The notes beneath the pieces are model-generated. The model was not told the origin of the DNA. It searched no databases and saw only the letters and a program-made list of their open reading frames with translations. From positions 209,374,001 through 209,438,000 of the forward strand of contig OZ360223.1 of assembly GCA_977017645.1 (NCBI GenBank): a stretch of 64,000 nucleotides of DNA. The letters run 5' to 3'. Made by a program: the position numbers and the translations under genes. Positions within the stretch are counted from its first letter, which is position 1. Each line of letters starts with the position of its first letter. Shown here in pieces: positions 5,663 through 41,460 of this stretch. This DNA comes from Torpedo marmorata (Eukaryota).

Positions 5663-6734
5663 CTGGGTAAAAAGGGAAGGAGAAAAACAGTTCAGAGGTG
5701 AAATATTGGCAACAAGAATGGATTTTGGTGCATCTGTACATTGTACTTACGTATATGACATTAAACTTTCATATCATTTCACATCCCCTCATAACATATC
5801 AACATTTAAGCAAGATCACTGCTGAAACAGTGAGGTGGGTTTTCCATGCAGGCTCTTCATTACTGGTTAGTTACAAATCCAATGTTAATTATATTTCATT
5901 GTTGTAAAGGATGCAGGAAAATCTCCAGGATTGCACATAGCACCGTTTCAGAGAGTCACCGAAAGGTCCATCCTTACCTTTAATTAACCTGCATGGTAAT
6001 TGATTGCATTGACTGGAGCAGGTGGGGCGAAAGCGCGGTAAAATGGATTTGCTGTCAGAGTTTAGATGTGGCACGCCTGCCAGATGGAACAACTGAGTGC
6101 TGTCGACATGACATGACCATTTGGTATGGTCAGTGATGTCCAGATGACCTTCACAATGGGTCATGAGACTGTTAGATGCAGCCTCTGATTGCTTACAACA
6201 GGTGCTGAATGCTAATTAGGCAAAAAAGGTTCAACAGTAATGGAGAAAGCCGGCCAGAGGGCAGAACTGATGAGACAGGATGAGTGCTGACACAGCCTTC
6301 CGAATCCTGTTGAAAGTGCTGGACTCCAGCTGCATTCAGAATTTCTTGGGCCTCTTAATGCACCCTTCACCATCAGCCTCAGCTCTAACTCACTATATCT
6401 GGAGCACGAGAATAATCCGAGTTTATTTTCCCTCAGTGGCTTGATCCCTGGATAGATTTACCAACAAAGGAGGCACAAGAAAGCACAAGTGCCTGACCAC
6501 ATCAGGGTACCACCACATTGGTGTAATGCTGCCACTATTTTCGCAGCTGTTTGGTTTTGAAGTGATGAGGGACTTGGGGGGATTTTTATGTGGGATACAG
6601 AGCCACTCCCTTCTGCAGCGACATTGTGGACAAAGTCAGACTTACTTAAAAATAAATTCCAGCATGTTTAGTAGGAAGGATGATGAATCATGTGCGAATG
6701 GTGCCATTGTTTAATGAGCCACAGATTAACTAAG

Positions 6735-7040
6735 TGAAACACAAAAGTCAGCAGACGCTGTGATTGTAGTAAAATCACACAGAAGTGCTGGAGGAATTCA
6801 GCTGGTCTCACAGCGTCTATAGGAGGTAAAGATACCAACGTTTCGGGCCTGAGCCCTTCTTCAAGGTATAAGTAAAAAGCAGGCAGGCGTCTGAATTAGA
6901 CTAGTGAGAGAAAGGGGGAAGAATGGGAAGGGGAGGACTCCACACCAACAGACAAAAGATGTTAATTGGACATGATAAGAGGAAAGGTGAGAATTGATTT
7001 TGTCTCTGTGAAAGGAGACAGAGGGAAAAGGGAAAAGGGA

Positions 7041-7071
<31 letters not shown>

Positions 7072-7230
7072 CAGAGAACTAGAGGAAAGGAGACAGGGGG
7101 AAGAAGATTGGGGGGGGGGGAGGTGTTTAACGGAAACTGGAGAGGTCGATGTTAATGCTATCTGGTTAATGTTGCCCAGATGGAAGATGAGGTGTTGTTC
7201 CTCCAATTTGTGGATGGTCTCAATCTGGTC
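6735..7230 (-). mobile_element. Penelope-like 3' fragment with hammerhead-like tail and (GA)n tract
   Basis: Minus-strand LEEQHLIFHLG matches the PLE C-terminus (LEEQHLIFRLG); tail resembles 11560-11730. Confidence 0.8.
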
Positions 7231-7349: not shown

Positions 7350-7620
7350 TAATCATGGAATTACAAACATGGAAACAGGTCCTTCAGTGCAACTTGCCCA
7401 TGCCAACCAAGGCACCTCCTTGAGCTAATGCCATTTGCCTGTATTTGGCGCCTATCCCCTACCATCTTTCCTATCTATGTATCTGTCTAAATGTATTGCA
7501 AACATTTTAATTATCCTCTAGCAACTGGCTCCATTTACCCATAATCCTCTGTGTGAAAAACATGCCCCCCAGGTTCCCTTTGAATCTTTCCCCTCTCATC
7601 TTAAACCTATGCCTTAGACT
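7350..7620 (-). mobile_element. Degraded CR1 3' fragment
   Basis: catggaaacaggtccttc...ctctgtgtgaaaaacatgccccccaggttccctttgaatctttcccctctcatcttaaacctatgcc resembles 54730-55000. Confidence 0.65.
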
Positions 7621-7804
7621 CGCCCACCCTCATGATTTTGCATACCTCTATAATGCCACCCCCTCAGACTCCTGCTCTGAGGGAAAACAGACCCAGTTTG
7701 GGAGAAATGTAACAATATGTCTCAGGATTATATCTAAAGGTTTTCTGGAGCAAATTGTCTTTGCTCACTTACATACAGATTCTGATAGCCCGCTCAGTAC
7801 ATAC

Positions 7805-7985
7805 TTCTCAAATTCTCTCCAGTTGTGTCATATCTGTCGTGAATCCATTCAGGTGGGTGAGGGTTGAAGTTAGCTTGAGATGCAGCATATCCCAGGGGGT
7901 CGTTGCTGACCCATGCTGTGAGATAGATGTAAAAGATATCAGGATTGATGATCCCATCCTCATCCACCAACCGTCTTGAAGACAA
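7805..7985 (-). CDS. PTCH2: Patched 2 coding exon (exon 17 homolog, 181 bp)
   Basis: [60 protein letters not shown]; the YDTTGENLR motif is PTCH2-type; tctag acceptor, gtatg donor. Confidence 0.95.
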
Positions 7986-8299
7986 CTAGAATAAAGGAGT
8001 AAATAAAGCAGTCAGTGAAACCTGCATGGAACATGATAAACTCGTGTAACAGCACATATGAGCACTAACTAGAGCAAAAGCTCCTGAAATGTTTCTAAAT
8101 TCACACATATTCATCTCCTGCAGAATGTGACATCTTTTAATTCTTATTTCACTCCTGCCTACAGACGTAAGTGATGTGGGAGTGGATTTATTTTATGTTG
8201 TGGTAGAATTTGTATTTGGGGAAAAAGAGTGTGTGAAAGCAGCAGAAACTCTTCCTGATATTTATGCCACTTAGGTTCACTCATACAGATAAGTGTACG

Positions 8300-11200
8300 A
8301 GGGACCTCCCCAACCTTCCCCCTCCCCCCAACACCCTCCACAACACCGATCCCCACTCTAACCCCTGCTTGGTTTTTATTATCCCCTCTGATCTTCCCCT
8401 CTCTGAGACAGAGCGCTCGGTCCTCAGTCGAGGCCTCACCTTCGTCCCCCTCCGCCAACACCTTAATGAGTTCCGCGCACGCTGCGATGCCAAACTCTTC
8501 TTCCGTCGCCTCCGCCTCCGGGCTCACTTCCATGACCGTGACTCTCCACCCCCCCACCCAAGACCCTTTCTCCCGCTTCAAGCCTTCTTCCTCTTCCTGG
8601 ACACCTCGTCCTGGCCAGCTGCCCGCTCTGGACCTTTTTATTTCCAACTGCTGCCGAGACATCAACCGTCTCAACTTTACCACCCCCCCCCCTCTCGTAT
8701 TCCAACCTCATCTCCTCAGAACGCTCTGCCCTCCACTCTCTCCGCAACAATCCAACCTCACCATCAAACCCGCAGACAAGGGCCGTGCAGTTGTGGTCTG
8801 GCGCACTGACCCCTGCCTTGCCGAGGCCAGTCGACAACTCTCAGACACCTCCTCCTACCGACCCCTCCCACGGGACCCCATCACTACACATCAAGCCACT
8901 GTCTCCAACACCATCTCCGACCTCATCACCTGCGGTCACCTCCCCCCCACGGCCACCAACCTCAATCTCTCCCACCCCCGCACTGCCCGTTTCTACCTTC
9001 TACCCAAGATACACAAACCCAACCATCCGGGCAGACCCAGTGTTTCTGCCTGCTCCTGCCCCACCGAACTACCGTAGTTTCATCTTACCTTGACTCCATC
9101 TTTTCTCCCCTGGTCCAATCCCTCCCCACCTAATTCTGCGACACCTCACATGCCCTCCATCTCCTCAATGACTTCAGATTCCCTGAACCGGACCACATCA
9201 TCTTCACAATAGATGTCCAATCCCTTTATACCTCTATCCCCCACACAGAAGGTCTGAAAGCACCTTGCTTCTTCCTGGACCAAAGACCCGACCAGTCACC
9301 ATCTACCACCACCCTCCTCCGCCTGGCAGAACCTGTCCTTACTCTCAATAACTCCTTCAACTCATCCCACTTCCTCCAAATCAAAGGAGTAGCCATGGGT
9401 ACCCGCATGGGTCCCAGCTACGCCTGCCTGTTTGTGGGCTTTGTGGAGCAATCCATGCTGCAAGCCTACACAGGCAAGGCCCCTCATCTCTTCCTCCGTT
9501 ATATCGACGACTACATCGGGGCTGCCTCATGCACCCGCGATGAGCTTGTCAACTTCATCCACTTCGCATCTAACTTCCACCCCGATCTCAAACTCACCTG
9601 GTCCATCTCCGATAACACTCTCCCCTTCCTGGATTTCTCTGTCTCCATCTCGGGAGACAAGCTTTCCACCTACATATACTACAAACCCACCAACTCCCAC
9701 TCCCAAAACTTGACGAAGGGTACCAAAATGGCGGCGCTGCCGGGGCCGCTGTAGCAGCAGTGCTGCCGCTGGTGTGGACCTGCGGGAAGCAAGGGAGCGG
9801 AGATGAGTCCAGCCGCCCAGTCGACTGCCGTCGGCTCCGCACGGGTTTTGAACGGCCCATTGAGGGAGCCGACGGTGGTTTTATTTGAGATCCTGCGGCC
9901 GCAGGGTCTGCGCCCAAGATGGCAGCGCCTATTAATCGGCAGCAGCCACGAGGGGCTGCAGACTCCGGGGAAGAGGAGGACTGGAGCAGGGCACCAGAGG
10001 ACGGAAAGATCACCCCCACCCCCCAAGGTCTGAGAAGGAGAAGCGGAGGAGACGACCCACGGGACGGTGACCACGGCGGCGGACCAGTGAGGGGCTCTGA
10101 GGCTGAAGGACCAGTGCATGCGGCGGGCTGCTGGCGACTCGAGGCGAAGGAACCCGTGGAGGCTGTGGGCTGCTGGAGACTGCTGTCGGGGGACTCACGC
10201 CGGGCTGCGGTCTACTGGAGACTGGCTCGAACTGGCTGGAGGAGTACCAGGTATCGGAACCGGGATGCGAGGGGGTGCCGAGGGCGCCGAAGGGTTCCTG
10301 ACCGTGTCGGAGGTTCGGATCTGGAGCTCGGGTTTCTGATGGTTTGGACTGGACTCTGTGTGGCTGCGGAGGCTGCGGAAGAGCTGGAGGCGAATCAACG
10401 GACACTCGGTGACTCTGGGGGGATTCCATTTTGCTTCTCTTTCTCTGACTATAAGGAATGTTAGAGGCGCTTAGGCAATTTCTGCCGGTGGCGAATCTGT
10501 CTGCCTTGCAGCAGGCAAAAAGAAATGTCATGTAATATGACACTGTTTTATTACTATGACAATAAATTGAATCTTGAATCTTGAACTATATGGACTACAC
10601 TTCCTCACTCCCTGTCCCCTGCAAGGATTCCATCCCCTTCTCTCAATTTCTCCATCTCCACCGCATCTGTTCCCAAGATGAGGTCTTCCAGTCCAGATCT
10701 TCTGAAATGTCTGCCTTCTTCCACAAACGTGGCCCTCACCCGCATCTCCTCCATTTCACGCTCATCTGCCCTGGCCCCCTCTGCCCCCAGACACAACAAA
10801 CATAGAATCCCCCTCATCCTCACCTACCACCCCACCAGTCTCCGCATCCAACACATTATCCTCCGGAATTTCCAGCACTTACTACAGGATCCCACCACCA
10901 GACATATTTTTCCTTCTCCTCCCCTCTCGGCCTTCTGCAGGGACCGCTCCCTCCGCGATTCCCTCGTGCATTCATCCCTCCCCACCCATCGCACCCCCGG
11001 CACCTTCCTCTGTCCCCGCAGGAGGTGCAACACTTGCGCCCACACCTCTTCCCTCACCACGGTCCAGGGTCCCAAACAGACCTTTCAAGTGAAGCAACAG
11101 TTCACTTGTACATCCAGAGAACCTATTTACTGCCTTTGTGGCATTCTCTACATCGGAGAGACCGGTCGTAGATTGGGAGATCGCTTCGCTGAGCACCTCC

Positions 11201-11732
11201 TCTCCGTCCACAACAACAGCGACCTCCCAGTAGCCAACCATTTCAATTCCGAGTCACACTCCCACACTCACATGTCTGTCCATGGCCTTATGTACTATCC
11301 CACCCAGACGACCCACAAATTGGAGGAACAACATCTTATTTTCCGTCTGGGCACTCTCCAGCCAGATGGCATTAACATTGACTTTTCTGCTTTCCACTAA
11401 ACCTGCTTGTCTTTTCCTTCCCCTCCCCCCTCACCTGTCCTTCCTGTTTTTTTCCACCCACCCAGCCATCCCTCCTCCCCCTCTTTGCTGCTGTCCCCTC
11501 CCTCCTTTCTCCACCTATCATCTCCTGCCTTTGCCACTCCCCCTCCCCCCCCTCATTCTTTTGTTCGGACGCCTGCCGGCATTTTCTCATACTTTGATGA
11601 AGGGCTCAAGCCTGAAACGTCGGTTATGTATTTCTACCTTTGCTACATAAAAGGCACTGTTTGACCTGCTGGTTTCTCCAGCATTTGTGTTTTTTACTTC
11701 AACCACGGTGTCTGCAGATTTTCGTGATTTAC
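8300..11732 (+). mobile_element. Penelope-like retroelement (RT + GIY-YIG), disrupted by stops/frameshifts and a nested insertion at about 9701-10584
   Basis: ORF pieces carry PLE motifs: LSRGLTFVP, IKPADKG, ARFYLLPKIHKP, MGTRMGPSYA, FLRYIDD, LPFLD and GIY-YIG-like LYIGETGRRLGDRFAEH. A pyrimidine-rich 3' UTR and hammerhead-like tail follow. 5' boundary approximate. Confidence 0.9.
9724..10584 (+). mobile_element. GC-rich non-autonomous retroelement, about 860 bp, nested in the Penelope element
   Basis: Starts aaaatggcggcg and ends tgacaataaa(ttgaatc)n; near-identical to 28188-29031. Penelope sequence resumes directly after it. Confidence 0.85.
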
Positions 11733-11752
11733 CTTTTAAATTAGAAGCTCAC

Positions 11753-11895
11753 CTGGTTATAGTTGAAGGCTTCTTTCTTATTTCCTGTTTGTATGAGTAA
11801 TTTGTAGGCAAGGATACCATCTTCTGAACCATTACGGTAACTCTCCCTGGTGATTTTGCCTGTCTGGCAGTCTTCATCAAATGCGTCCTGTAGTC
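11753..11895 (-). CDS. PTCH2: Patched 2 coding exon (exon 16 homolog, 143 bp)
   Basis: Read manually: GLQDAFDEDCQTGKITRESYRNGSEDGILAYKLLIQTGNKKEAFNYNQ; cacag acceptor, gtgag donor. Confidence 0.95.
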
Positions 11896-12417
11896 CTGTG
11901 TGAGCAAATGAGAAGAGTTGGTATTACACTTTTACAAATAGAAGTAAGTCCATTTCATCCTTTGGGATGGAGGAATATGGTTAATCTAATATTCTTAAGT
12001 GAGTACTCTTGACCTCATCATTGTCAAAAGTATATTTACCAAGTCTTCCAACTACAGTGAGGCTTTTGGAAAGCAATTGTCACCAAACCTAGTTTGGTTT
12101 TATTTAGGTTAATAGGTTTAGGAGTTTTTTCTCAGATTGCTACATCAGGTAGAAGCAATAAATTATTGCAGGTTACGTTACTCCTTACTGTCTATATGCC
12201 GTAACCTGGCCAAAAGAATCACTCACTCACTATACAAACATCTTACTTGTAATATGATAATTTCAGTCCAGCAAAAGCTGATCAGATTCTGTAAAGAAAG
12301 GTGCATTCTACTCTGCAAGGTTAATGCCCAGAAGGCAAAAGTCTATCCTTAATTTTCACTTTCACATCTGCACTTTCAATAGTTTCCAGTCCTGCACTAA
12401 CTTTATGAAAGTAAGTA

Positions 12418-12642
12418 CAGTAAAACCCCCAGATTCCAGCACCTATGGGGATTGGTATGTGCCGGGTAAGTGAATTTTCCGGTTGCTTGAGATTGCATGT
12501 GGCCTGATTGGTGAACTATCGGCAAGGTGCGCCAATTTGAAACTTCCGTATTTTTTACCTACTTATTTTCCGCAATTCTTTTTGCCAGTTGCTTGAGGCT
12601 GCTGCTTGCTTGAATTCTGTCCGGATAACAGGGGTTTTACTG
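12418..12642. mobile_element. Tigger/pogo-like MITE
   Basis: 12-bp terminal inverted repeats CAGTAAAACCCC...GGGGTTTTACTG; TA on the left flank, CA on the right. Confidence 0.75.
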
Positions 12643-13291
12643 CACATGCATAAACTCACACTGGGTAATTTCCTGTGGCATGGCTCAATATGAGCCACAG
12701 GATTGTCCAGTACAGATGCCAGCATGAAAGTGATGGGTAAGATTTAAAAGGACCAAGTGTTACAGCATGTAATTGTGGCACATGCAAGAAGAGACTTTGA
12801 AAACATTATTTATTGACAGATAGACAGGAGCAGGATACTGGTTGCAGTTTGTCTGTTCTTGTGTAATACACAAATTTATTATCAGGGAAATTTAGGGAGA
12901 ACTCCATCCTGTGCCAATCCTGCACTTCACTTATCCCTCTTGACAGCCCCACGCTTGGAGATGCTTGCTGTTGAAATGGCAAAGTCTCATTTTCCAGTCA
13001 TTGACATCCTCCAGTAACAAACAAACAACAAGAGGAATTCAGCTGGTCAGGCAGCATCTGTGGAGCCAGAGGAATGATCATCATTTTGGGTCAACCATCC
13101 CTCTGCCTCCACAGATGTGGCCTGACTCCCTGTTTTTTTCTTTAAGGTCCAGATGAAAGAAACTGCGATCCCTTGTGTCTCCATTGACATCCTTTACCCT
13201 GACATTGCGTGTCTGCGTGGGTTTTCTCCGGGGGCTCTGGTTTCCTCCCACCGTTCAAAACGTACCGGGAGTGTAGGTTAATGGGGTGTAA

Positions 13292-14523
13292 GTAAAACAC
13301 GAAAATGCTGGAGAAACTCAGCAGGTCAAACAGTGACTTTTATGTAGCAAAGGTAGAAATACATAACCAACGTTTCGGGCTTGAGCCCTTCATCAAAGTA
13401 TGAGAAAATGACGGCAGGCGTCCGAACAAAAGAATGAGGGGGGGAAGGGGGAGTGGCAAAGGCAAGAGATGATAGGTGGAGAAAGGAGGGAGGGGACAGC
13501 AGCAAAGAGGGGGAGGAGGGATGGCTGGGTGGGTGGAAAAAAACAGGAAGGACAGGTGAGGGGGGAGGGGAAGGAAAAGACAAGCAGGTTTAGTGGAAAG
13601 CAGAAAAGTCAATGTTAATGCCATCTGGCTGGAGAGTGCCCAGACGGAAAATAAGATGTTGTTCCTCCAATTTGCGGGTAGTCTGGGTGGGATAGTACAT
13701 AAGGCCATGGACAGACATGTGAGTGTGGGAGTGTGACTCGGAATTGAAATGGCTGGCTACTGGGAGGTCGCTGTTGTTGAGGACGGAGAGGAGGTGCTCA
13801 GCAAAGTGATCTCCCAATCTACGACCGGTCTCTCCGATGTAGAGAAAGCCACAAAGGGAGCACCGGATGCAGTAAATAAGTTCTCTGGATGTACAAGTGA
13901 AGTGTAGTTTCACTTGAAAGGCCTGTTTGGGGCCCCAGACCGTGGTGAGGGGGGAGGTGTGGGCGCAGGTGTTGCACCTCCTGCGGGCACAGGGGAAGGT
14001 GCCGGGGGTGCGATGGGTGGGGAGGGATGAGTGCACGAGAGAATCACGGAGGGAGCGGTCCCTGCGGAAGGCCGAGAGGGGAGGAGAAGGAAAAATGTGT
14101 CTGGTGGTGGGATCCTGTAGTAAGTGCCGGAAATTCCGGCGGATAATGTGTTGGATGCGGAGGCTGGTGGGGTGGTAGGTGAGGATGAGGGGGATTCTAT
14201 GTTTCTTGCGTCTGGGGGCAGAGGGGGCCAGGGCAGATGAGCGGGAAATGGAGGAGATGCGGGTGAGGGCTGAGGTGATGGTGGTGGAGGGAAGCCACGT
14301 TTGTGGAAGAAGGCAGACATTTCAGAAGATCTGGACTGGAAGACCTCATCTTGGGAACAGATGTGGCGGAGACGGATAAATTGAGAGAAGTGGATGGAAT
14401 CCTTGCAGGGGACAGGGTGTGAGGAAGTGTAGTCCAGATAGTTGTGGGAGTTGGAGGGTTTGTAGTAAATGTTGGTGGAAAGCTTGTCTCCTGAGATGGA
14501 GACAGAGAGTTCCAGGTAGGGGA
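13292..14523 (-). mobile_element. 5'-truncated Penelope-like element, same family as 8300-11732, inserted in a V-SINE
   Basis: ORFs 13590-14036 and 13340-13708 are near-identical to those of the + copy. Flanked by direct repeat GGTGTAA (13285-13291, 14524-14530). Confidence 0.92.
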
Positions 14524-17500
14524 GGTGTAAATTGGGCGGCACTGCCTGTTACCGTGCTGTATGTCTAAAAAAAAAATTTCAATTGCAAAAGGATGATTTA
14601 AGGAAAGCTTTTCTGAATAAGTCAGTTGTTGCCACCATTTAGTGGGTTTGAAAGAAAACCATTTCAAAGCAGTAATTTAACATCACTGAAAAAAAAAACA
14701 CAATTAAGGTCTGGGAATGCATGGAGTGTATTAAAGGGCACAGATTGCAAGATTATTTTTTTATTTTTAGAATGTTGAAGGATACCCTGTGTGGTCTAAC
14801 AGAAAAGGATACACTATTTTTCAAAAAGCACCAGTCTGTTCAATCTGCTATGGCTATGACAAAGGCATTTTTTTAAACCAGTAAACTCCATCTGGCAAAC
14901 CCTTTGAACATTCAAGCATTTTATTTCACTTTTATTTTGCTTCTGGGTGTTTGTTTCTTCATGCTAGTTCTATCAATTTGTGCCTCTGATGCTCTTCAAG
15001 TGATACAATTATCATACGTGCCAATGACTTCAGAGTTTGCTGAGTTCATGATCTCAGGCAAGCAAAATTATTTCCTCAAAAACAGTAAAATTAAAAGGTG
15101 CCATCAGAGGTCCATTTTGATGCTAATAGCAATGGAAATATCCATGTTACACCCAAGTGATAATGTTGCTCGCACTGGACTTGTTGAGTGTTAAAGATTA
15201 ATAAAAATGAAGTATTATCTGTAGTTACATCATGAATTTATTATATGGTAAGTTCTCCCAAGATATGGCTTTAATTCTGCTTGTAAATAAAACTATCTGA
15301 TATTTGTAATCACTACTATCATAATATGAAAGGAAACGGATAGGTTCTTTTTTTTAATCCCTTAAGAAGAAGGTGGCCTAACGGCCAAACAGATTTGTCT
15401 ATTGAGGTTAATTTACTTGATATTTTACTTGAAATAATTGAGAAAGGGATGGGATGGTCCCCGAGACCCTCAAAGACATCCTCTTTTAATGCAAAGCTAC
15501 ACGGATTCACTTCTGAAACCCTGTCCATTATCTGTCAACAACATAGGTTCAAAAAAATAGTTTAAGCCTCTTGGGAGACTTGGGTCAAGAGTTTCAAAGA
15601 TTGAGCATTTCTAGCTAGCAGAAGCTTCAGAGGATACTAACCACACTCATTAACTGTATGAGCTCAGAGAAGCTGTGTAGAATGAGCATATCGTCCTAAT
15701 GTCAAACCAGAGTGCATAAAGCTAGCCAGCTGTCAGGTGCATTTGCCATGTTGTTAACAAACCTGTGTATAATTGGTCGACAGCTTTAAGGACAATCTTG
15801 CATACTTTTTAAAATCAAGCAACATGTTTGCATCATACACTTTTACAGTTTACTTTGTTTCCCTGATAACACTGAATGTACATACGATTATGATTCAGGA
15901 CATGGATACAAAAGGTAATAGGAGTTTGACTGAAGGGGAAAGGTTATGAAGCTAAACACAATATGCTGGAGGAACTCAGCAGGTCGAGCAGCATCAGTGG
16001 GAGAATAAGGATTGGTCAATGTTTCGAGCTGAAACCCATCATGACTTCATCCATTCTTTTTCTCTCATTGATCCTGCTCCACCATTGAATTCCTCTAGCA
16101 CATTGTGTTTAGCCTCAGATTCTGGCAATTGCTGTCTCATGTGTGTCTAGAGCAAGATTATGGTAGTTGGTTGGAGGAAGAGGTTCCCACTGTCAGTTTA
16201 GGCATTCCAGATGTTGTCACTGTATTTGCCTCATCTGGACACCAACCAAACAAAGCCAAGTTTGATCTGCTAGCAAGTATAATGCAGTGAAGAGAAGAGG
16301 ATACATGTACTTACATTTGGAGGGGGTTGGGGGGGGGGGGAAGAGAGAGAGAGAGAGAGAATGATAAAAAATTAATGGTATATTTTGGAAGAAAACATAA
16401 AAATACAGATTCATTTTAGCAAAGGTATAATAAAAGAATCCTAATCTTCAACATTGTAAAGAGATTCCAGTGAGTGTCTTCAATTACAGGGCTACGGTAG
16501 GATAATGATCCAACCTCATGTATGTTCTTGGTAAAGTGTTGGGTGTTTGGCAGTGTGATTCTGCGGAAATGTAAACACACCTTGTCATTCAATCTCACAA
16601 ATGCAATCAACCCAAACCCTGGAGGCATGAGGATGTAATGTGAGTAGGTTTATTCGGGAAAGAAAAAAGCATTGTTGTATTTCCTGCTCTCCCTTCCCCT
16701 TTCCTTCTCCCTCCCCCTCCCACACTCCCTCTAATTCAGCCCTGAAGGCAATTCAACTCTTCAGAGAAAATTTCTGTCTTCCATACTCAAGAGAGTTGGA
16801 TGGCAACTGTGTTTTCACTGGTGAATGTCTCAATACAATGCTGTTCACTGGTACAAGAGGGCACCGCCAAGCCCATATAGGGAAGGTCTCAGACAAAGGA
16901 GGAACTGACACATTTTCAGCAGTCGGCCACATGGAAAAAAATACTAAGAACACTTTGAAGAAGATTGAACGTGTTGACAAGGATATGTACTTGATATGTA
17001 ACACTCAAATCTCTCAACAATTATCAGCAAACATATCGTAGAGCTGTCAGTTGCAAGGGATTAGTTCATTCTCCTTTGAAGCTGATTTAAAATTGAAATG
17101 CAGGCCTTTAAATTCAGATCTATGTCAGCAAGATGTCACGAATCATACATCTGATCTGTGAACAAATGGATCCTTGAAAGAAGCAGAGCAAATTTTTATG
17201 CCTCCAAGAAGATGAAAAGGGTTTCCAAACCATACAAGGGTTTACAAGCCTTTAGCAGGCGCAATTTTTCTGTGATGGCTGCATTTGAAAATTAAGGCAT
17301 CTATACCAATCATCAGATCAAGGAAAACATAAACACATCTGAGTGCAACTCTGCAGAAATAAAGATTTTTTAAAAAGAAGGCAAAATGCCTTTTGATTTG
17401 TAAACTCTCTGAACAGTCTGTGTTGTGACCCTGTTTTTGTTTTCCTTTGCAGCAGACGTTTGGTCATCAGCAGGTTAAAGAACATTCATTTCCTTTCTTG

Positions 17501-17759: not shown

Positions 17760-18010
17760 AAAAAATTTAGACTTACAGCACAGTAACAGACCATTTCGGC
17801 CCACGAGTCCGTGCTGCCCAATTTACACCCAATTAACCTACGCCCCCGGTACGTTTCAAACGGTGGGACGAAACCGGAGCCCCCAGGGAAAACCCATGCA
17901 GACATGGGGAGAACGTACAAATTCCTTAGACAGCGCGGGATTCGAACCCCAGTCCCGGTCGCTGGCGCTGTAAAGGCGCTGTGCTAACCGCTACGCCAAC
18001 CGTGCCGCCC
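17760..18010 (-). mobile_element. V-SINE (HE1-like); an older V-SINE remnant follows to about 18200
   Basis: Same family; intact tRNA-like head (ggttcgaatcc on the minus strand). Confidence 0.85.
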
Positions 18011-18399
18011 AATTAACAGTGGCCAATTAATCTATTAGCCCACGCGTCTTTGGGATTTGGGAGGAAACTGGAGCACCCAGAAGAAACCCGCAGAGTCAGA
18101 GAGAACATGCAAACTCTGGACAGATAGCACCAGAAATCAGGATTGAACTTCGCTCTCTGGAGGCAACTACTCTACTATCGCGATGCTGTGCCTCCCACAG
18201 CTGAGCGACTGTCTCATCCTGAAATTTGCTGTGAATGCATTTGAGGTCAACAAATCATATGGGAAAAAATATTATAAAGGATGCTTTCTGTGCAATTTCT
18301 CTCAGGGAAGGAATTGGACTATTAGAAAGTGCATTGAAATTTCCTGTCATCACACATCACTTTGTCTGTCAGAGCTGTGAGAGATAATTTAAATTTAAT

Positions 18400-18663
18400 T
18401 TTTTAAAATTTTTAAATTTAGACATACAGCATAGTGACAGGCCCTTTCAGCCCACAAGCCCGTGCCACCCAATTACACCCAATTAACCTATGACCCCAGT
18501 ACGTTTTGAAGGGTGCGAGGAAACCGAAACACCAGAAGGAAACCCACACAGACACGGGGAGAACCTACAAACTCCTTACAGTCAGCGCAGGATTCAAACC
18601 CTGGTCCTGATCGCTGGCGCTGTAACAGCATTGCGCTAACTGCTACACTAATCGTGCTGCCCT
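18400..18663 (-). mobile_element. V-SINE (HE1-like)
   Basis: Same family. Confidence 0.85.
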
Positions 18664-22457: not shown

Positions 22458-22770
22458 CTCTTAGCCAGTCCTGAATATAATGCAACCACATTTTTGGCAA
22501 CTCTTTATTCTCTTCACGAACAATGTATTTGATACCATTGAAACTTCTGTGCAAGTCATACAGCAACTTCTGGGATGCAGCATAATCAAACCCTCCCATG
22601 GAGATAATGTACATGTTGTAGAATGAGAAATACTTGAACTGAGCTTCAATGAAATTGTACTCCTTGGTCTCACGAGGCACAATGTCTGTAAGGTACAGTC
22701 CATCATGAACCATGGTAGTTCCATAAAGACTCATCCCAAGCAAGGCCATGAAGAGGATTAACACGACAAT
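22458..22770 (-). CDS. PTCH2: Patched 2 coding exon (exon 15 homolog, 313 bp)
   Basis: [54 protein letters not shown]...[14 protein letters not shown]; tctag acceptor, gtaag donor. Confidence 0.95.
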
Positions 22771-23397: not shown

Positions 23398-23640
23398 GGG
23401 CAGCACGGTTAGCGCAACACTGTTACAGCGCCAGCGATCGGGACCGGGGTTCGAATCCGGCACTGTCTGTAAGGAGTTTGTATGCTCTCCCCGTGTTTGC
23501 GTGGGTTTCCTCCGGGTGCTCCGGTTTCCTCCCACCCTTCAAAACGTATGGGGGATTGTAGGTCAATTGGGTGTAATTGGGTGGCACGGGCTCAGGGGCC
23601 GAAATGGCCTGGTTCCATGCTGTATGTCTAAATTTTTAAA
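23398..23640 (+). mobile_element. V-SINE (HE1-like)
   Basis: ggttcgaatcc B box; gcgtgggtttcctccgggtgctccggtttcctcccac V domain. Confidence 0.88.
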
Positions 23641-24787
23641 AAATAAAGAAGTGGGCATGCTGTCCACGTCAGCAGTTCTTGCCTGCCCTTAACTGCTCGT
23701 CACCAGACGGTGATGAGGCTCCGAGGCTCCCCTTTGTATCCTGGTGGTACTTGCAGTGAAGGTAGCCCCACAGTGCTGGCAGGGAGGAAGCTTCATCATG
23801 TTGACCCAGCAATAATGAGGAAACTGCAACAGATTTTCAAGTCTGGCTGATGAAGTTTCAGGAAGAGTCATTGGGGAGTGGCAATGGCGTGGCATGGGCC
23901 AAGAAACAGTGCCACCCATGTATAGATGGGTGACGCCATTGCTGCATGCTGCACTGCACTGCAACTATTCTGGTCATACACCTGCCTCTGTAAACATCAG
24001 AAAGGCTCAATGCTTAAACCGGCAGATTGACTTTTGTTCTTCTTACGCTTTTGGGAGTGCAAAGGAAATTGTGGGTTCAAGTGAAAGTCAGTGTGGGCGA
24101 TGGTGGTGGTAAGATGGCCAACAGTTGAGTGGTCTTTCAGGACCTGGAATGGTGTGTAGGATTGACGATCAGGATAAGGGGGGAGCGGTGGGGGGGGGGG
24201 TGGTGGTTGAGGTCGATAGCAAGCATTTGGGGCCCAGCAGAGGCGGAGGTCGTCATAGGGACTGGTGAATCAAGGGTGAGCCAATGGGGAATTTGGGAGA
24301 GGACATAGAGAAATCAGGTCTCCTGAGAACCAGGGCCTTATGAGGATTGGGACCGAAGGAATATTGGGTCAAAGGAGCCTGAGGGATTGGAAGTTTGAGG
24401 CCAAGGTCAACTAAGGTGTTGGGGAGTGAAGGGATTGGTATCATGAGCAAAGCCCCTCCACCAGTGGACAGGTGGTAAATATGTGATTTACCATAGTGGG
24501 TCCCAGTCATGTTGGTGCAGAAAGAAAACACAGTTGTCCTGGAAGTGGATTAATTTTCTTAGCACAGGGAATAATATCACTCATCAGTGAAAGTGTGTCA
24601 GACAAGGAAGTATGACTCACACTGGGAAGGGTCCTGTCAAATTTCTGGAGTGGGGTGAAGCAACCAGGAAATGGTCATTTTTGTGCTTTGTTTCATCTGA
24701 ATTGAAGTGATCGGAGCTATGAGGTTAAATTTCTAGGCTATGATCTTCAGCATAATACAAAGGCAAAACAGTTGGAAAATTGCTTAC

Positions 24788-25193
24788 TTTGGATTCTGTC
24801 TTGAGGAGGAGTGGAGCGTACTTGTCCCGTGCAAAATCTGCCAAGTTCCATTTGACAAAGGGCATCTGAATGCAGTCCCTGCAGGCTTTTGCCTCGTCCA
24901 CCTGGGCCAGTAAGTCCCGAGTTGAACTGGTGGGGTCCATTCCCTGGGAGCCAATGTGCTCTGCTGGAGGCACGATGATCGAAGGAGTTGAAGAGATTTG
25001 AGATGTTGGAGAAATGATGGTGACAATGTGTTGCCCAGTGGGATCGCACTGGGTGAAGGCCTGCACTGTGGTGGTGATCTGGGTGCTGTGGGTAAACGTT
25101 GGCCTTCCGTTCAGTGAAGGGTGATAGTTATGGCTATCATTCGCATCTGCAAACTCTTGCGGTTGGACCTGAATCACTCGAGTTGAGCAGAGA
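24788..25193 (-). CDS. PTCH2: Patched 2 coding exon (exon 14 homolog, 406 bp; cytoplasmic loop)
   Basis: LCSTRVIQVQPQE...PTSSTRDLLAQ...KWNLADFARDKYAPLLLKTESK; ttcag acceptor, gtaag donor; phases fit. Confidence 0.94.
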
Positions 25194-25704: not shown

Positions 25705-25789
25705 CTTTTGCCTCGTCCCTCTTGGCCAGTAAGTCCTGATTCGAACTAGTGGGGTCTATTCCCCGGGAGCCAATGTGCTCTACTGGAGG
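25705..25789 (-). repeat. Intronic 85-bp diverged copy of part of PTCH2 exon 14
   Basis: Ungapped match to 24886-24970, 10 mismatches by manual count. Confidence 0.9.
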
Positions 25790-27526: not shown

Positions 27527-28187
27527 GTAAGCTCAGGCAGATCACATTGCTGGAGCTGACATGTAGATGATATATCCCATCATTTATGCCAACGACATTG
27601 GCTGTGCAAATTGAAGGCCTGCTTGCAGGCTGGTCTAGTGTTCATCCCTGTCAGGTTCATGCTGCTTAAAGCTCTTTGTACTGTTTTCAGCGACTCCAGG
27701 CTTTGCCAAGTACAGTAGGCCGAAGGGAGTTTTCAGCAGATCACCATTTAGCATGAGAATAAAGAGAGCACAGGACAGGAAAACAATCACTGTTCAGTGG
27801 AAATAATGAACACATGATATCTTCCTTAGCCCTTACTCTCTGGACTGGGTTGCAGTTTTCATGTACTGGACCCTCCTACTTTATGCCTGATATCCCACTC
27901 CCTGTGCAGCCCCTCAACATGTCCACAAAGAAAAATAAATGAATAGTAATTAAATTCTAGTAAAAATTCCAGAAAGGTGTGTTTGGGTATGGAACAATTT
28001 ATTTGGAGAATGATAGACAGCAAAGGGAATGATTTTCCAACTCTCTAAAAATACATTTAGACTGAACTTAAAATGCATACTAGAAATGTTTTGTATCCCT
28101 CCAATATGTAGTTATCCTGACAACAAAGCCCACCCCCCCCCCACCCACAAATAAAATTCAACTTTTTGTAAACATGCATTGTGGCAT

Positions 28188-29031
28188 AATGGCGGCGCTG
28201 CCGGAGCCGCTGTAGCGGCAGCGCTTCCGCTGGTGCAGACCCGCGGGGAGCGAGGGAGCGGAGATACAGCGCTCCCGCGGGGTCCAGCCGCCCAGTCGAC
28301 TGCTGTCGGTTCCGCACGGGCTTTGAACGGCCCGTTAAAGGAGGCGATGGTGGTTTTATTTAAGATCCCGCGACCACGGGGTCTGCGCACAAGATGGCAG
28401 CGCCTTTTAACCGGCAGCAGCCACGAGGGGCTGCAGATTCCGGGGAAGCGGAGGACTGGAGCAGGGCACCAGAGGATGGGAAGATCACCCCCCGTCTGAG
28501 AAGGAGAAGCAGAGGAGACGACCCACGGGATGGTGACCATGGCGGCGGACCGGTGAGGGGCTCTGAGGCTGAAGGACCAGTGCACGCGGCGGGCTGCTGG
28601 CGACTCGAGGCGAGGAACCCGCGGAGGCTGTGGGCTGCTGGAGACTGCTGTCGGGGTACTCACACCGGGCTGCGGACTGCTGGAGGCTGGCTCTAACTGG
28701 CTGGAGGAGTACCAGGTATCGGAACCGGGATGCAAGGGGATGCCGAGGGCGACCTGACCGTGTCGGAGGTTCGGATCTGGAGCTCGGGTTGCCGATCGTT
28801 TGGACTGGACTCTGTGTGGCTGCGGAAGCGCTGGAGGCGAATCTATGGACACTCGATGACTCTGGGGGGATTCTCTTTTGCTTCTCTTTCTCTGACTGTA
28901 AGGAATGTAAGAAGCGCTTAGGCAATTTCTGCCGGTGGCGAATCTGTCTGCCTTGCAGCAGGCAAAAAGAAATTTCATGGAATATGACACTGTCTTATTA
29001 CTATGACAATAAATTGAATCTTGAATCTTGA
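28188..29031 (+). mobile_element. Second full copy of the GC-rich non-autonomous retroelement
   Basis: Colinear with 9724-10584, with the same 5' aatggcggcg and the same 3' tail. Confidence 0.85.
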
Positions 29032-38957: not shown

Positions 38958-39210
38958 TTGGATCTGGAGCTTGGGTTGCCGATGGTTTGGACTGGACTCT
39001 GTGTGGCTGCGGAGGCTGCGGGAGCGCTGGAGGCGAATCCACAGACACTCGGTAACTCTGGGGGGAACTCTCTTTTGCTTCTCTTTCTCTGATGTAAGAG
39101 GCGCTTCAGGCAATTTCTGCCAATGCGAATCTGTCTGCCTCAGAGCAGACAAAAGCAATTCAATGTAATATGACACTGTTTTTATTACATGACAATAAAT
39201 TGAATCTTGA
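38958..39210 (+). mobile_element. 5'-truncated copy of the GC-rich non-autonomous element
   Basis: ggatctggagcttgggttgccgatgg...tgacaataaattgaatcttga matches the 3' third of the family. Confidence 0.8.
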
Positions 39211-41460
39211 AATCAAGGATTTAGCAGTAGAAAGAGTGTGCATTTTTCCTATATTAATAAAGTTGCTTTTATTTCAAAACCAGAAAATCCTGAAAAGCAG
39301 AGAACTTCAATCCATTTGGTAAGAACTGATCAGTAACATGATGGCACCGTGTAGTGTATCTTCAGCATGTGATGATAATTCCACTCTCTGAACTCCGTGA
39401 CATCCTGAGCTGGCCTCAGTGTGGCCACCGGAGGAGGGGTGGATTGGGCTCAACTCTAAATAAACTCATGCTGGACATCTGAAATATAAGCAGAGCATGC
39501 TGGAAATACAGCAGGCCAGGCAGCAGCCACACAAAACACATCATAGAGCCAACGTGCCAGATAAAAGATCCATCATTGTGAGTGACTCCGGCACTTTCTG
39601 CTTTCTTTTTCGGGCTCAGCTGCAATACCTGTCACCATCCAACTACTCATCAACATGCATACATTTTGCTGCTTGGCCCTTAGCGTCGATGCCTATAGTT
39701 TGGATGGTTGTGTAGAAGCACACATCAAAGTCAATGAGCTCAAGAAAGGGAAAGGTAAAGCACATTTTCAATTAATTTGGAAATAAATGGTGTTGATGGC
39801 TGCATACAAAAGACTGCAAATGGCCTAACGACTTGATGCAAATAATAAAAGAGTGGCAGGCATAGTTATTTCTCTAAAGTCTACAACCACGCTCATCATT
39901 TATGACATTTACACAGCCGCTGCATAACGGGAAAATCTCGGAAATTTCCCGTTATGCTGGCTGTGTAAAAATGTCGTGACGGAAATTAAGAACTAATTTC
40001 CGTCCCAACATTTTTCCTGCAGCAGCTCTCGACATTTTTACGGACTGCCTGCTATCTAAACTGAACTGCAGGCGGTCTGCAAAAATGGGTTAATGAATAC
40101 GACGTACCTGTGTACGTCCGAATCGACGTGGACCCACGTCTACCCTCCGGAATCACCGCAACGCAGGAAGTTAGTGTAAACGTCCATCCTGTGTGAACGG
40201 CCACTCCGGAGGGTAAGTATGCATATTGATGACGGGAAAATCTCGGTACTTCTGTCTAAAAAACATAATTGATGTGGTGAGAAGGATGGATATTGTTGGG
40301 AGCGTAAACACTGCCAGTTCCCAACTGCTGTACTAACTCCTCAGTTGACGAGGTGACTGGTGCTAGTCATTTTCAGGGCCAATATGAAAGAGCTAATGAA
40401 CTAAAAAGAGCACCTGTTTCCCTAGCTATGCTCCAGCAAAGATAGAATAGGCATGAAAGGAAAAAGAAATGAAAGAAAAGAGATGAGTATAGACTCTGAT
40501 TGGTGTGCGAGTAGAAAAATATTTAAGGTAACTTGCAGTGTCTGCTCTAGAAAGAGTTAAAGAGCACTTTCTTCGGAAGAAGAGGCTTTTCTGTTTTCCA
40601 CCAGTGTCTGTTCTCACTTGTCCACATGTCATTCAGTCAGGATCTTGTGCTCTCAGCCTGAAACTTTAGATCTGAGTCAGGTGACCTATCATTGCCTTCG
40701 GCATGATGTTTTTCAGGCCGGTTAAGACCCCTCCCAACACCTTAACCACACCACAATTTTATGGCACTTTATCACGGAGATCTTACAAGAGTGGAGCCAC
40801 AGGTGCAAATTCAGGCTGTGCTTTCAGCTACTGGGCAGCCTCTTGGTTGGCACCCTGACAATCAGAGCTCAAAGAGCAAAACTAGGATATCATAAATCAT
40901 ATCACAAAGTAATGTTTCCGAGTCTTTCATGGTCTGTTTAAAGGGATTGCACCACATCCATGGAGATTTCCCAGGTCATGTTCTGGGCAACGCACCAACT
41001 CTGTTGTAATCCCACTCATTTTACGTTGATTTTAAATAGAAAAAAAAAAGCACAAAAATTCTGGGATTGTATAACATTCCACTCATTTTTACATGATTTA
41101 AACTATTTCCTTTTTATAATTTGAAATGATCTGTGTTATTTTCTCCTGTCTTTAGGTTTCTCTCTTTCCAGCGCCACACGCAGCTCCCTAGGCATAACAT
41201 GAAGACACTCAGGGAGATCAGCAGCCAACTTTCATCACTGCTTTTGCTGGAAGGTGTAAAAGAGTAACACTGAAAAGGACTTTATTAGTTCGGGGAAAGA
41301 AGAAACTCTCATATTTGTAACAGCAGCTGCAAGTTGGGTAACGACCACCACTGACGTATTGTTTTATGAAACTCACATTCTATGTCACCACAACAACTAA
41401 AGCCACCTGTTCCTTTCCCTCTGCTCTATTAAAAAAACACACACTTCCATTAATCAACAT

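Follow-up and report, generated by a model that had tools for sequence, protein, structure and literature searches.

Two opposed Penelope-like insertions enclose PTCH2 exon 16 in Torpedo marmorata, likely through a neutral chance meeting

We analysed a window of 64,000 nucleotides (64 kb) of Torpedo marmorata DNA, in which exons 3-18 of a Patched gene are read from the minus strand as 16 exons and 924 codons, free of stops and with AG/GT splice sites throughout. Exon 16 is numbered after human PTCH1 exon sizes. Its peptide matches proteins called Patched 2 at 85% in chimaeras and at 72-79% in tetrapods, whereas with the top-scoring Patched 1 chain of the structure bank it agrees at 26/44 positions. 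Judged by pairwise identities, the gene appears closer to vertebrate PTCH2 than to PTCH1, and an earlier sequence-only reading, which had named the gene PTCH2 and the exon its sixteenth, agrees with these Patched 2 identities. Shark and ray orthologs bear the automatic name 'patched homolog 1'. By crude counts, the exon 16 acceptor has pyrimidines at 15/20 positions (gene range 11-19) and ends in CAG, and the donor has 7/9 matches (gene range 5-9); these splice sites look ordinary, with an acceptor that is mid-range for the gene and not obviously weak. Where 17 other cartilaginous-fish proteins all agree, the gene carries only two private changes, one of them in exon 16. Relaxed selection on this exon was considered and rejected, its W-to-C change occurring also in Narcine and a frog and only P-to-A being private.

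Table 1. Features around PTCH2 exon 16, in window coordinates.
Feature	Position	Strand	Remarks
PTCH2 exon 17	7805..7985	-	
Plus copy, whole	~8293-11732	+	interrupted by 883-bp insert
Plus copy, 5' part	8293..9700	+	N-terminal region and RT; frameshifted, 5'-truncated; left end +/-~10 nt
Nested insert	9701..10583	+	another abundant repeat; ends AATAAA and GAATCTT-type tail
Plus copy, 3' part	10584..11732	+	linker, GIY-YIG region, 3' UTR, full tail
Hammerhead-like motif, minimal, plus copy	11588..11628	+	UUGAUGA-A-helix II-GAAACGUC; antisense to pre-mRNA
Terminal tail of plus copy	11700..11732	+	no partner in minus copy
PTCH2 exon 16	11753..11895	-	143 nt; acceptor ...cacag, donor CAG/GTGAGC; AG/GT
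Host SINE, left half	13208..13291	+	split by minus copy
Target-site duplication, left	13285..13291	+	GGTGTAA, 7 bp
Minus copy	13292..14523	-	Penelope-like; 5'-truncated, without nested insert, one frameshift near 14294
Hammerhead-like motif, minimal, minus copy	13362..13402	-	ends GAAACGUU; sense in pre-mRNA
Target-site duplication, right	14524..14530	+	GGTGTAA, 7 bp
Host SINE, right half	14531..14578	+	A-rich end
PTCH2 exon 15	22458..22770	-	

Two Penelope-like copies lie tail to tail around exon 16, their 3' ends facing each other across it (Table 1). The element protein is an RT/GIY-YIG frame, a single ORF in which RT is followed by a C-terminal GIY-YIG endonuclease. RVT_1 is matched in 9134-9700 (E 4.9e-6, below Pfam's cut-off), the copy's own GIY-YIG match is weak (E 0.13), and Pfam at E 0.1 returned nothing in 6/7 frames; an 892-aa homolog, P0153, in which both RVT_1 and GIY-YIG are above cut-off, aligns along both copies at 42-52%. 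Between RT and endonuclease we found a zinc-finger linker of the form CX4CxxC (CARRRCNTC in the minus copy, CPRRRCNTC in the plus copy), CX2-5CxxC being a feature of EN+ Penelope-like elements as defined in PMC8557442. By eye, the minus copy also carries the CCHH motif of the endonuclease, with CSLC in the GIY-YIG core and downstream histidines aligned to the homolog; the motif is partly deleted in the plus copy. The homolog alignment, linker and motif support the Penelope identity proposed earlier, and both copies appear to belong to one abundant Neptune-type EN+ Penelope-like family, 'Neptune-type' referring to the form of the linker. The 85-aa and 122-aa frames noticed in both copies do exist and differ at 5 residues each; as genes they were rejected, being incidental frames over the end of the true reading frame and the 3' untranslated part.

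The minus copy is sense in the pre-mRNA and lies in intron 15, inside a SINE. Intact SINE copies in contigs join 13291 to 14544, and the letters after 13291 are those at 14531. The target duplication and the SINE halves border the minus copy only, and its junctions are crossed by no contig: in 4/4 runs the contigs of its flanks break off within the split SINE, at 13250 to the left and at 14569-14578 to the right. The plus copy is antisense in the pre-mRNA, in intron 16, and ends 20 nt from the exon 16 donor. No convincing target duplication borders it, the longest candidate being 3 bp. Its nested insert has a second copy at 28185-29031, and family contigs without the insert were found.

Self-BLAST of the window returned, as its best self-match, 10584-11699 against 14443-13290 (92.6% over 1154 columns, 3 gap openings), confirming that about 1.1 kb of the plus copy is mirrored on the minus strand. 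With gaps left out, 47/1108 columns differ between the arms (95.8% identity), and in the gaps the plus copy is short by 25, 12 and 1 nt. The inverted pair described in the sequence-only reading thus stands, and its wording 'near-identical' should be 96% (47/1108 columns and three gaps). A further arm, 9615-9700 against 14528-14444 (86 columns, 90.7%), is separated by the nested insert. The loop between the element ends, 11733-13291, measures the ~1.56 kb given earlier and contains, as claimed, exon 16 as its sole exon, together with small repeats. Among the inverted pairs of the gene it is by a wide margin the longest and most similar, with 1154 columns at 92.6% where no other exceeds 235 columns at 86%, and it is also longer than an Alu pair. 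The match between the arms is far beyond chance; the arrangement, an inverted pair in a repeat-rich genome, is not.

We then considered how the pair arose. The family is extremely abundant: contigs matching 5.9 kb number 405,800, 140,397 and 128,567 in three DNA-like runs, and in the same order 879, 761 and 974 records continue past the element end at 11732 into flanks that differ from one another. The contig depth summed across the arms does not amount to a copy number and served only to set a wide range; with copy number, genome size and exon count assumed, a rough chance estimate gives 0.5-142 exons per genome enclosed by such pairs with a loop of at most 1.6 kb. The real number may be lower, because these inputs are assumed and because Alu pairs in the human genome are less often inverted than direct (PMC3670932). 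Some inverted repeat pair lies across 3 of the 14 internal exons of PTCH2. One contig of organism C joins 7586-8288 directly to 11738-12176, an empty site, and the plus copy is absent there. Organism B probably lacks it too, as judged from a contig of one depth (11) that matches 11738-12464 and, going by its listed differences, about 8166-8290. In the closer relative, organism A, a contig runs 25 letters into the plus-copy tail, and the copy with its tail junction is probably present. For the plus copy, the presence/absence comparison proposed earlier thus gave one clear and two probable results; for the minus copy, no junction was crossed. In run X7 of organism B, the listed differences of one contig fit the limits of exon 16, as those of spliced RNA would; this contig is no test of the pair, because organism B probably has no plus copy. 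Among the 20 sequencing-run matches listed, none contained half of the sequence words and none was an RNA run, which does not bear on expression.

Neither self-BLAST nor the arm alignment showed unique flank common to both arms. Single-event inverted Penelope units are joined at their 5' ends (PMC8557442), and an origin of our pair in one event was rejected because the tails point towards each other, with 1.56 kb of host intron and exon between them, and the minus copy has a target duplication of its own. Different ages for the two copies are likewise unsupported, with CpG losses of 7 and 5. The arms are likely two separate insertions that met by chance. An unlikely addition to this history is gene conversion between the arms after insertion, which would imply DNA pairing that could invert or delete exon 16. 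The arms share an identical run of 209 nt at 11316-11524 (P 0.002 under uniform scatter, 0.004 with CpG allowed for), and their 3' part differs less than their 5' part (10/485, 2.1%, against 34/617, 5.5%; Fisher P 0.005). However, P rises to 0.035 when the run is judged inside the 3' part only, two source elements with a differing coding part and a common 3' end would give the same pattern, and the CpG losses, split 7 and 5 between the arms, are what separate decay would give.

The minus copy entered the SINE in intron 15, producing the 7-bp target duplication, and the plus copy entered intron 16 near the donor, lengthening the intron from ~0.3 to 3.8 kb, and was then hit by another repeat. 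The arms are predicted to pair in the pre-mRNA over ~1.1 kb and to leave exon 16 in a 1.6-kb loop. The predicted energy of the duplex is -2280 kcal/mol, whereas the single arms fold at -238 and -322, in line with the long pre-mRNA duplex proposed earlier, and a 2.4-kb fold model has 408 long-range pairs and leaves the exon 16 splice sites in the loop, outside the long duplex. A pairing arm comes within 53 nt of the donor, and the upstream arm lies 1.4 kb from the acceptor. On the transcribed strand the arms hold 215 and 310 adenosines. The likely result would be intronic A-to-I editing, with at most trace skipped or circular products, and the locus is explicable without any selected function. 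We are fairly confident that two separate insertions of one abundant Neptune-type family met here by chance and that exon 16 is likely still spliced normally, the inverted pair being a likely neutral by-product. A sizeable effect is opposed by the intact frame, the ordinary splice sites lying in the loop, the shortness of 143 nt for a single-exon circle, the abundance of the family, the separate insertions and the inverted pairs across 3 of 14 internal exons of this gene. On the other side stand the length and likeness of this pair, unmatched in the gene, and an arm that pairs to within 53 nt of the donor; partial skipping is also compatible with an intact frame.

Loop-out skipping is an improbable alternative, in which the duplex would bring the exon 15 donor and the exon 17 acceptor into play and exon 16 would be lost from a sizeable share of transcripts, lowering PTCH2 dose in the lineage. 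The computed consequence of skipping, a frameshift with a stop 24 nt into exon 17, agrees with the frameshift predicted earlier for a 143-nt exon, and such an mRNA would likely undergo nonsense-mediated decay. The duplex stability, its 408 pairs and an arm so near the donor favour skipping, and inverted Alu pairs, which are enriched around skippable exons, offer a precedent with TBXT (PMC13019027). In that paper, however, stability is linked to skipping only weakly and only in weak-acceptor exons (a weak acceptor with a strong donor being the class that shows the effect), and the exon 16 acceptor is mid-range; the upstream arm is far from the acceptor, and one of two private amino-acid changes in the gene is no sign of release from selection.

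We consider it quite unlikely that the duplex makes exon 16 back-splice into detectable amounts of a 143-nt circle. Flanking inverted repeats are the standard cis element of back-splicing, with young elements dominating (PMC8516420), reverse-complementary sequences are present in both flanking introns, and in the model the long duplex takes in neither splice site. A circle may form despite the small size, because shark circles of 170-177 nt are on record (PMC7759564). Against this, longer exons circularise more readily and inverted repeats are insufficient (PMC4479058, on yeast and cited human data), and the loop is asymmetric, with 53 nt on the donor side and 1.4 kb on the acceptor side. In mammals, circRNAs associated with young elements resemble by-products of splicing (PMC8516420). 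Doubtful to a high degree is a Penelope counterpart of ape TBXT, in which the lineage-specific insertions would loop out exon 16 from a real share of transcripts, sending it to decay or to a 143-nt circle, and Hedgehog signalling would be retuned in one electric-ray lineage.

It is barely plausible that the sense hammerhead-like motif in intron 15 cuts the pre-mRNA while the antisense arm shields it: helix II, an additional base following position 9 and the palindromic GAAACGU end are as described for Penelope minimal hammerheads (PMC4209133), and the minus-copy motif is fully paired and buried in the duplex model, but the motif is single and has a U3-G8 wobble in its core, minimal motifs tested singly in that paper did not cleave in vitro, and Rfam gave 0 hits at gathering score in the 64 kb and, at E up to 10 in 11 kb, 14 weak matches with no ribozyme among them. 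Equally far-fetched is the idea that one arm arose as an assembly artefact or as a simple local duplication of the other in inverted orientation: the assembly is the source of the layout, since no run spans both arms with the window's own sequence, but the arms differ by 47 substitutions and in gaps and 5' ends, one alone has the nested insert, the minus copy has its target duplication, and the plus-copy tail junction is probably present in organism A.

The locus is a new instance of a known layout in which inverted repeats flank an exon, and a literature search without most subscription journals found neither the locus nor splicing driven by Penelope elements described. A neutral pair would show only that a burst of Penelope-like copies leaves inverted pairs around exons and that a predicted 1.1-kb duplex, 53 nt away from a splice donor, is tolerated by a conserved gene for a Hedgehog receptor. 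If splicing is altered, loop-out skipping or back-splicing would extend from Alu-type pairs to Penelope, in a developmental gene of a cartilaginous fish. With relatives that lack one arm as controls, the pair has modest value as a natural experiment.

Compared with the Neptune-type EN+ elements of PMC8557442 and PMC4209133, our copies are alike in RT with C-terminal GIY-YIG, the CX4CxxC linker, 5' truncation and a 30-40-nt tail (in one copy here), and have a candidate minimal hammerhead-like motif near the 3' end. They depart from the inverted units of PMC8557442, single insertions joined at their 5' ends, in that 1.56 kb of host DNA separates their facing 3' ends, and from the hammerheads of PMC4209133 in a core with U3 opposite G8. 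Like the inverted Alu pairs around the TBXT exon (PMC13019027), they are young, lineage-restricted, opposed retroelements within a few kb of an exon, with a predicted stem-loop and a skip that would shift the frame; unlike those 300-bp SINEs, they are 1.1-kb Penelope-like arms in a cartilaginous-fish host. With repeat-driven back-splicing loci (PMC8516420, PMC4479058) they share reverse-complementary young elements in both flanking introns, whereas the exon here is a single one of 143 nt in a very asymmetric loop.

The inverted layout that the sequence-only reading had described around exon 16 of PTCH2 is real and correct. Self-comparison of the window gives as its strongest repeat 10584-11699 against 14443-13290 (92.6% over 1154 columns including gaps), and a second inverted match pairs 9615-9700 with 14528-14444 at 90.7%. 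These arms belong to a plus copy in intron 16 and a minus copy in intron 15. The mirrored 122-aa and 85-aa frames reported earlier are both present, with 5 residue differences each, but they coincide with the last part of the true reading frame and with 3' untranslated sequence. Both copies align along their length with a homolog whose RT and GIY-YIG domains pass the Pfam cut-offs, and each contains a CX4CxxC linker, a combination that the excerpt of PMC8557442 assigns to endonuclease-positive Penelope-like elements of Neptune or Nematis type; on domain content, we identify both copies as such elements. Each also has a minimal hammerhead-like motif, whose core is U3-G8. Such motifs are usual for the class, and single motifs showed no in vitro cleavage (PMC4209133, excerpt). 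The decayed remnant in intron 17 is 72-78% alike to the plus copy and has the U3 hammerhead-like start in common with it. The ~860-bp repeat inside the plus copy ends in AATAAA and a GAATCTT-type tail, with no Pfam match in the one frame searched.

Coordinates of the inverted copies and neighbouring features
Feature	Position	Strand	Remarks
Plus copy	~8293 to 11732	+	split at 9701-10583 by another repeat
Minus copy	14523 to 13292	-	element limits
Loop	11733-13291		between element ends; holds exon 16
Exon 16	11753-11895	-	143 nt
Second repeat type, ~860 bp	9701-10583 and 28185-29031		first inside plus copy; abundant, GC-rich
Shorter remains of ~860-bp repeat	1-199 and 38960-39211
MITE-like element	12418-12643		in loop; multi-copy; short terminal inverted repeats CAGTAAAACCCC ... 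GGGGTTTTACTG
Older decayed Penelope remnant	6734-7220		intron 17; inverted vs plus copy (11306-11732) across exon 17
Small fold-back remnants	13030-13142 and 15947-16117		arms similar to Penelope tail
Inverted SINE pairs	17761-18640 vs 23406-23642		flank exon 15; 82-86% over ~235 nt
Partial exon 14 copy	25705-25789	-	intron 13; 85 nt, 88% identical to 24886-24970

Without gaps, the arms mismatch at 47 of 1108 columns; non-CpG divergence is 3.1% (32/1028), and CpG losses are 7 vs 5. Relative to the minus copy, the plus copy has deletions of 25, 12 and 1 nt, and we take it as the side that lost nucleotides because loose ends of family contigs resemble the minus-copy letters at these gaps. Divergence is 2.1% over the 3' 485 columns versus 5.5% over the 5' 617 columns (P 0.005), and the less diverged part includes a 209-nt stretch (11316-11524) free of mismatches. 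Gene conversion between the arms may have produced both the contrast and the identical run; equally, they may derive from two source elements with a common 3' end, as a subfamily mosaic.

A stingray protein places 16 exons on the minus strand of the window, all 16 AG/GT-bounded and together giving 924 stop-free codons with hand-set boundaries. Among the non-skate species compared, identity of the predicted protein is 98.3% with Narcine bancroftii, 96.2% with sawfish, ~95% with stingrays and mobulids and 92-93% with sharks, which makes an electric ray the likely host. The 47-residue exon 16 peptide matches Patched proteins, at 72-85% identity to those named Patched 2 versus 26/44 to Patched 1, which identifies the gene, at the sequence level, as PTCH2-like. 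We presume the exon to be number 16 from human PTCH1 exon sizes. It carries a P-to-A and a W-to-C change (11770 and 11867); the former is unique to the window, all 23 aligned homologs having the same residue there, and the latter also occurs in Narcine and one frog. The intron 13 copy of part of exon 14, ~800 nt upstream of its source, reads as a decayed local duplication. When exon 15 is joined to exon 17 computationally, the frame meets a stop codon after 24 nt of exon 17, with later exon junctions a long way downstream, bearing out the earlier claim that skipping would shift the frame. Decay is expected of such an mRNA.

In the pre-mRNA, the arms would pair as a duplex with exon 16 in the loop: predicted pairing reaches -2280 kcal/mol vs -238 and -322 for each arm alone. 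The modelled fold of the inner 2.4 kb has 408 long-range pairs and leaves both exon 16 splice sites outside the long duplex. On the donor side the duplex is predicted to stop 53 nt away, on the acceptor side ~1.4 kb away. The earlier reading proposed a circle, skipping or editing; we consider normal inclusion of exon 16, with intronic editing and trace by-products, the most probable outcome. By a crude score the exon's splice sites are mid-range within PTCH2, and PMC13019027 (excerpt) detected no relation between stability and skipping for exons of this class, which counts for normal inclusion. Circularisation is poorer for short exons, and inverted repeats are insufficient for it (PMC4479058, excerpt); mammalian circles tied to young elements resemble by-products (excerpt of PMC8516420). 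Against normal inclusion, the arm pair exceeds any Alu pair in length, one arm lies near the donor, and circles of 170-177 nt are recorded in shark (PMC7759564, in part). In humans, moreover, pairs in inverted orientation are under-represented (PMC3670932, excerpt), so tolerance of such a pair cannot be assumed. The boldest reading, a loop-out of exon 16 made by the Penelope copies and retuning PTCH2 within a single ray lineage, is very improbable.

The family is very abundant. In sequencing run X1, 405,800 contigs match 5.9 kb of the region, and 879 records exit the element end into dissimilar flanks. If copy number is taken as 10,000-100,000, genome size as 3-5 Gb and the exon total as 200,000, all of them assumed values, 0.5-142 exons would be expected by chance inside an inverted pair with a loop of <=1.6 kb. 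Within PTCH2, inverted pairs span 3 of the 14 internal exons, the other two pairs being short and 72-86% alike. The pair around exon 16 is likely neutral.

The minus copy interrupts a SINE. The window contains six intact copies of this SINE, and the two halves align with them. The minus copy is bounded by a GGTGTAA target duplication (13285-13291 and 14524-14530), and intact-SINE contigs run through its insertion site unbroken. The plus copy has a target duplication of 3 bp at best. Its insertion enlarged intron 16 from ~323 to 3767 nt and left just 20 nt (11733-11752) between its end and the exon 16 donor; in humans, insertions this near exons are usually selected against (PMC13019027, excerpt). 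Among relatives represented by sequencing-run contigs, organism C shows the empty plus-copy site directly in one 1506-nt contig (8288 to 11738), and equal contig depth on both sides suggests that it is empty in organism B. Presence in organism A is probable rather than firm because its contig enters the plus-copy tail by 25 letters, below the 31-letter bridging threshold. In the listed contig pieces, the unique flanks differ from the window at 51/3629 (A), 161/3153 (B) and 240/3177 (C) letters. If both copies had a single source, both would have inserted after the B split and before the A split. The copies here lie tail to tail, in contrast to the single-event inverted unit of the class, whose copies join at their 5' ends.
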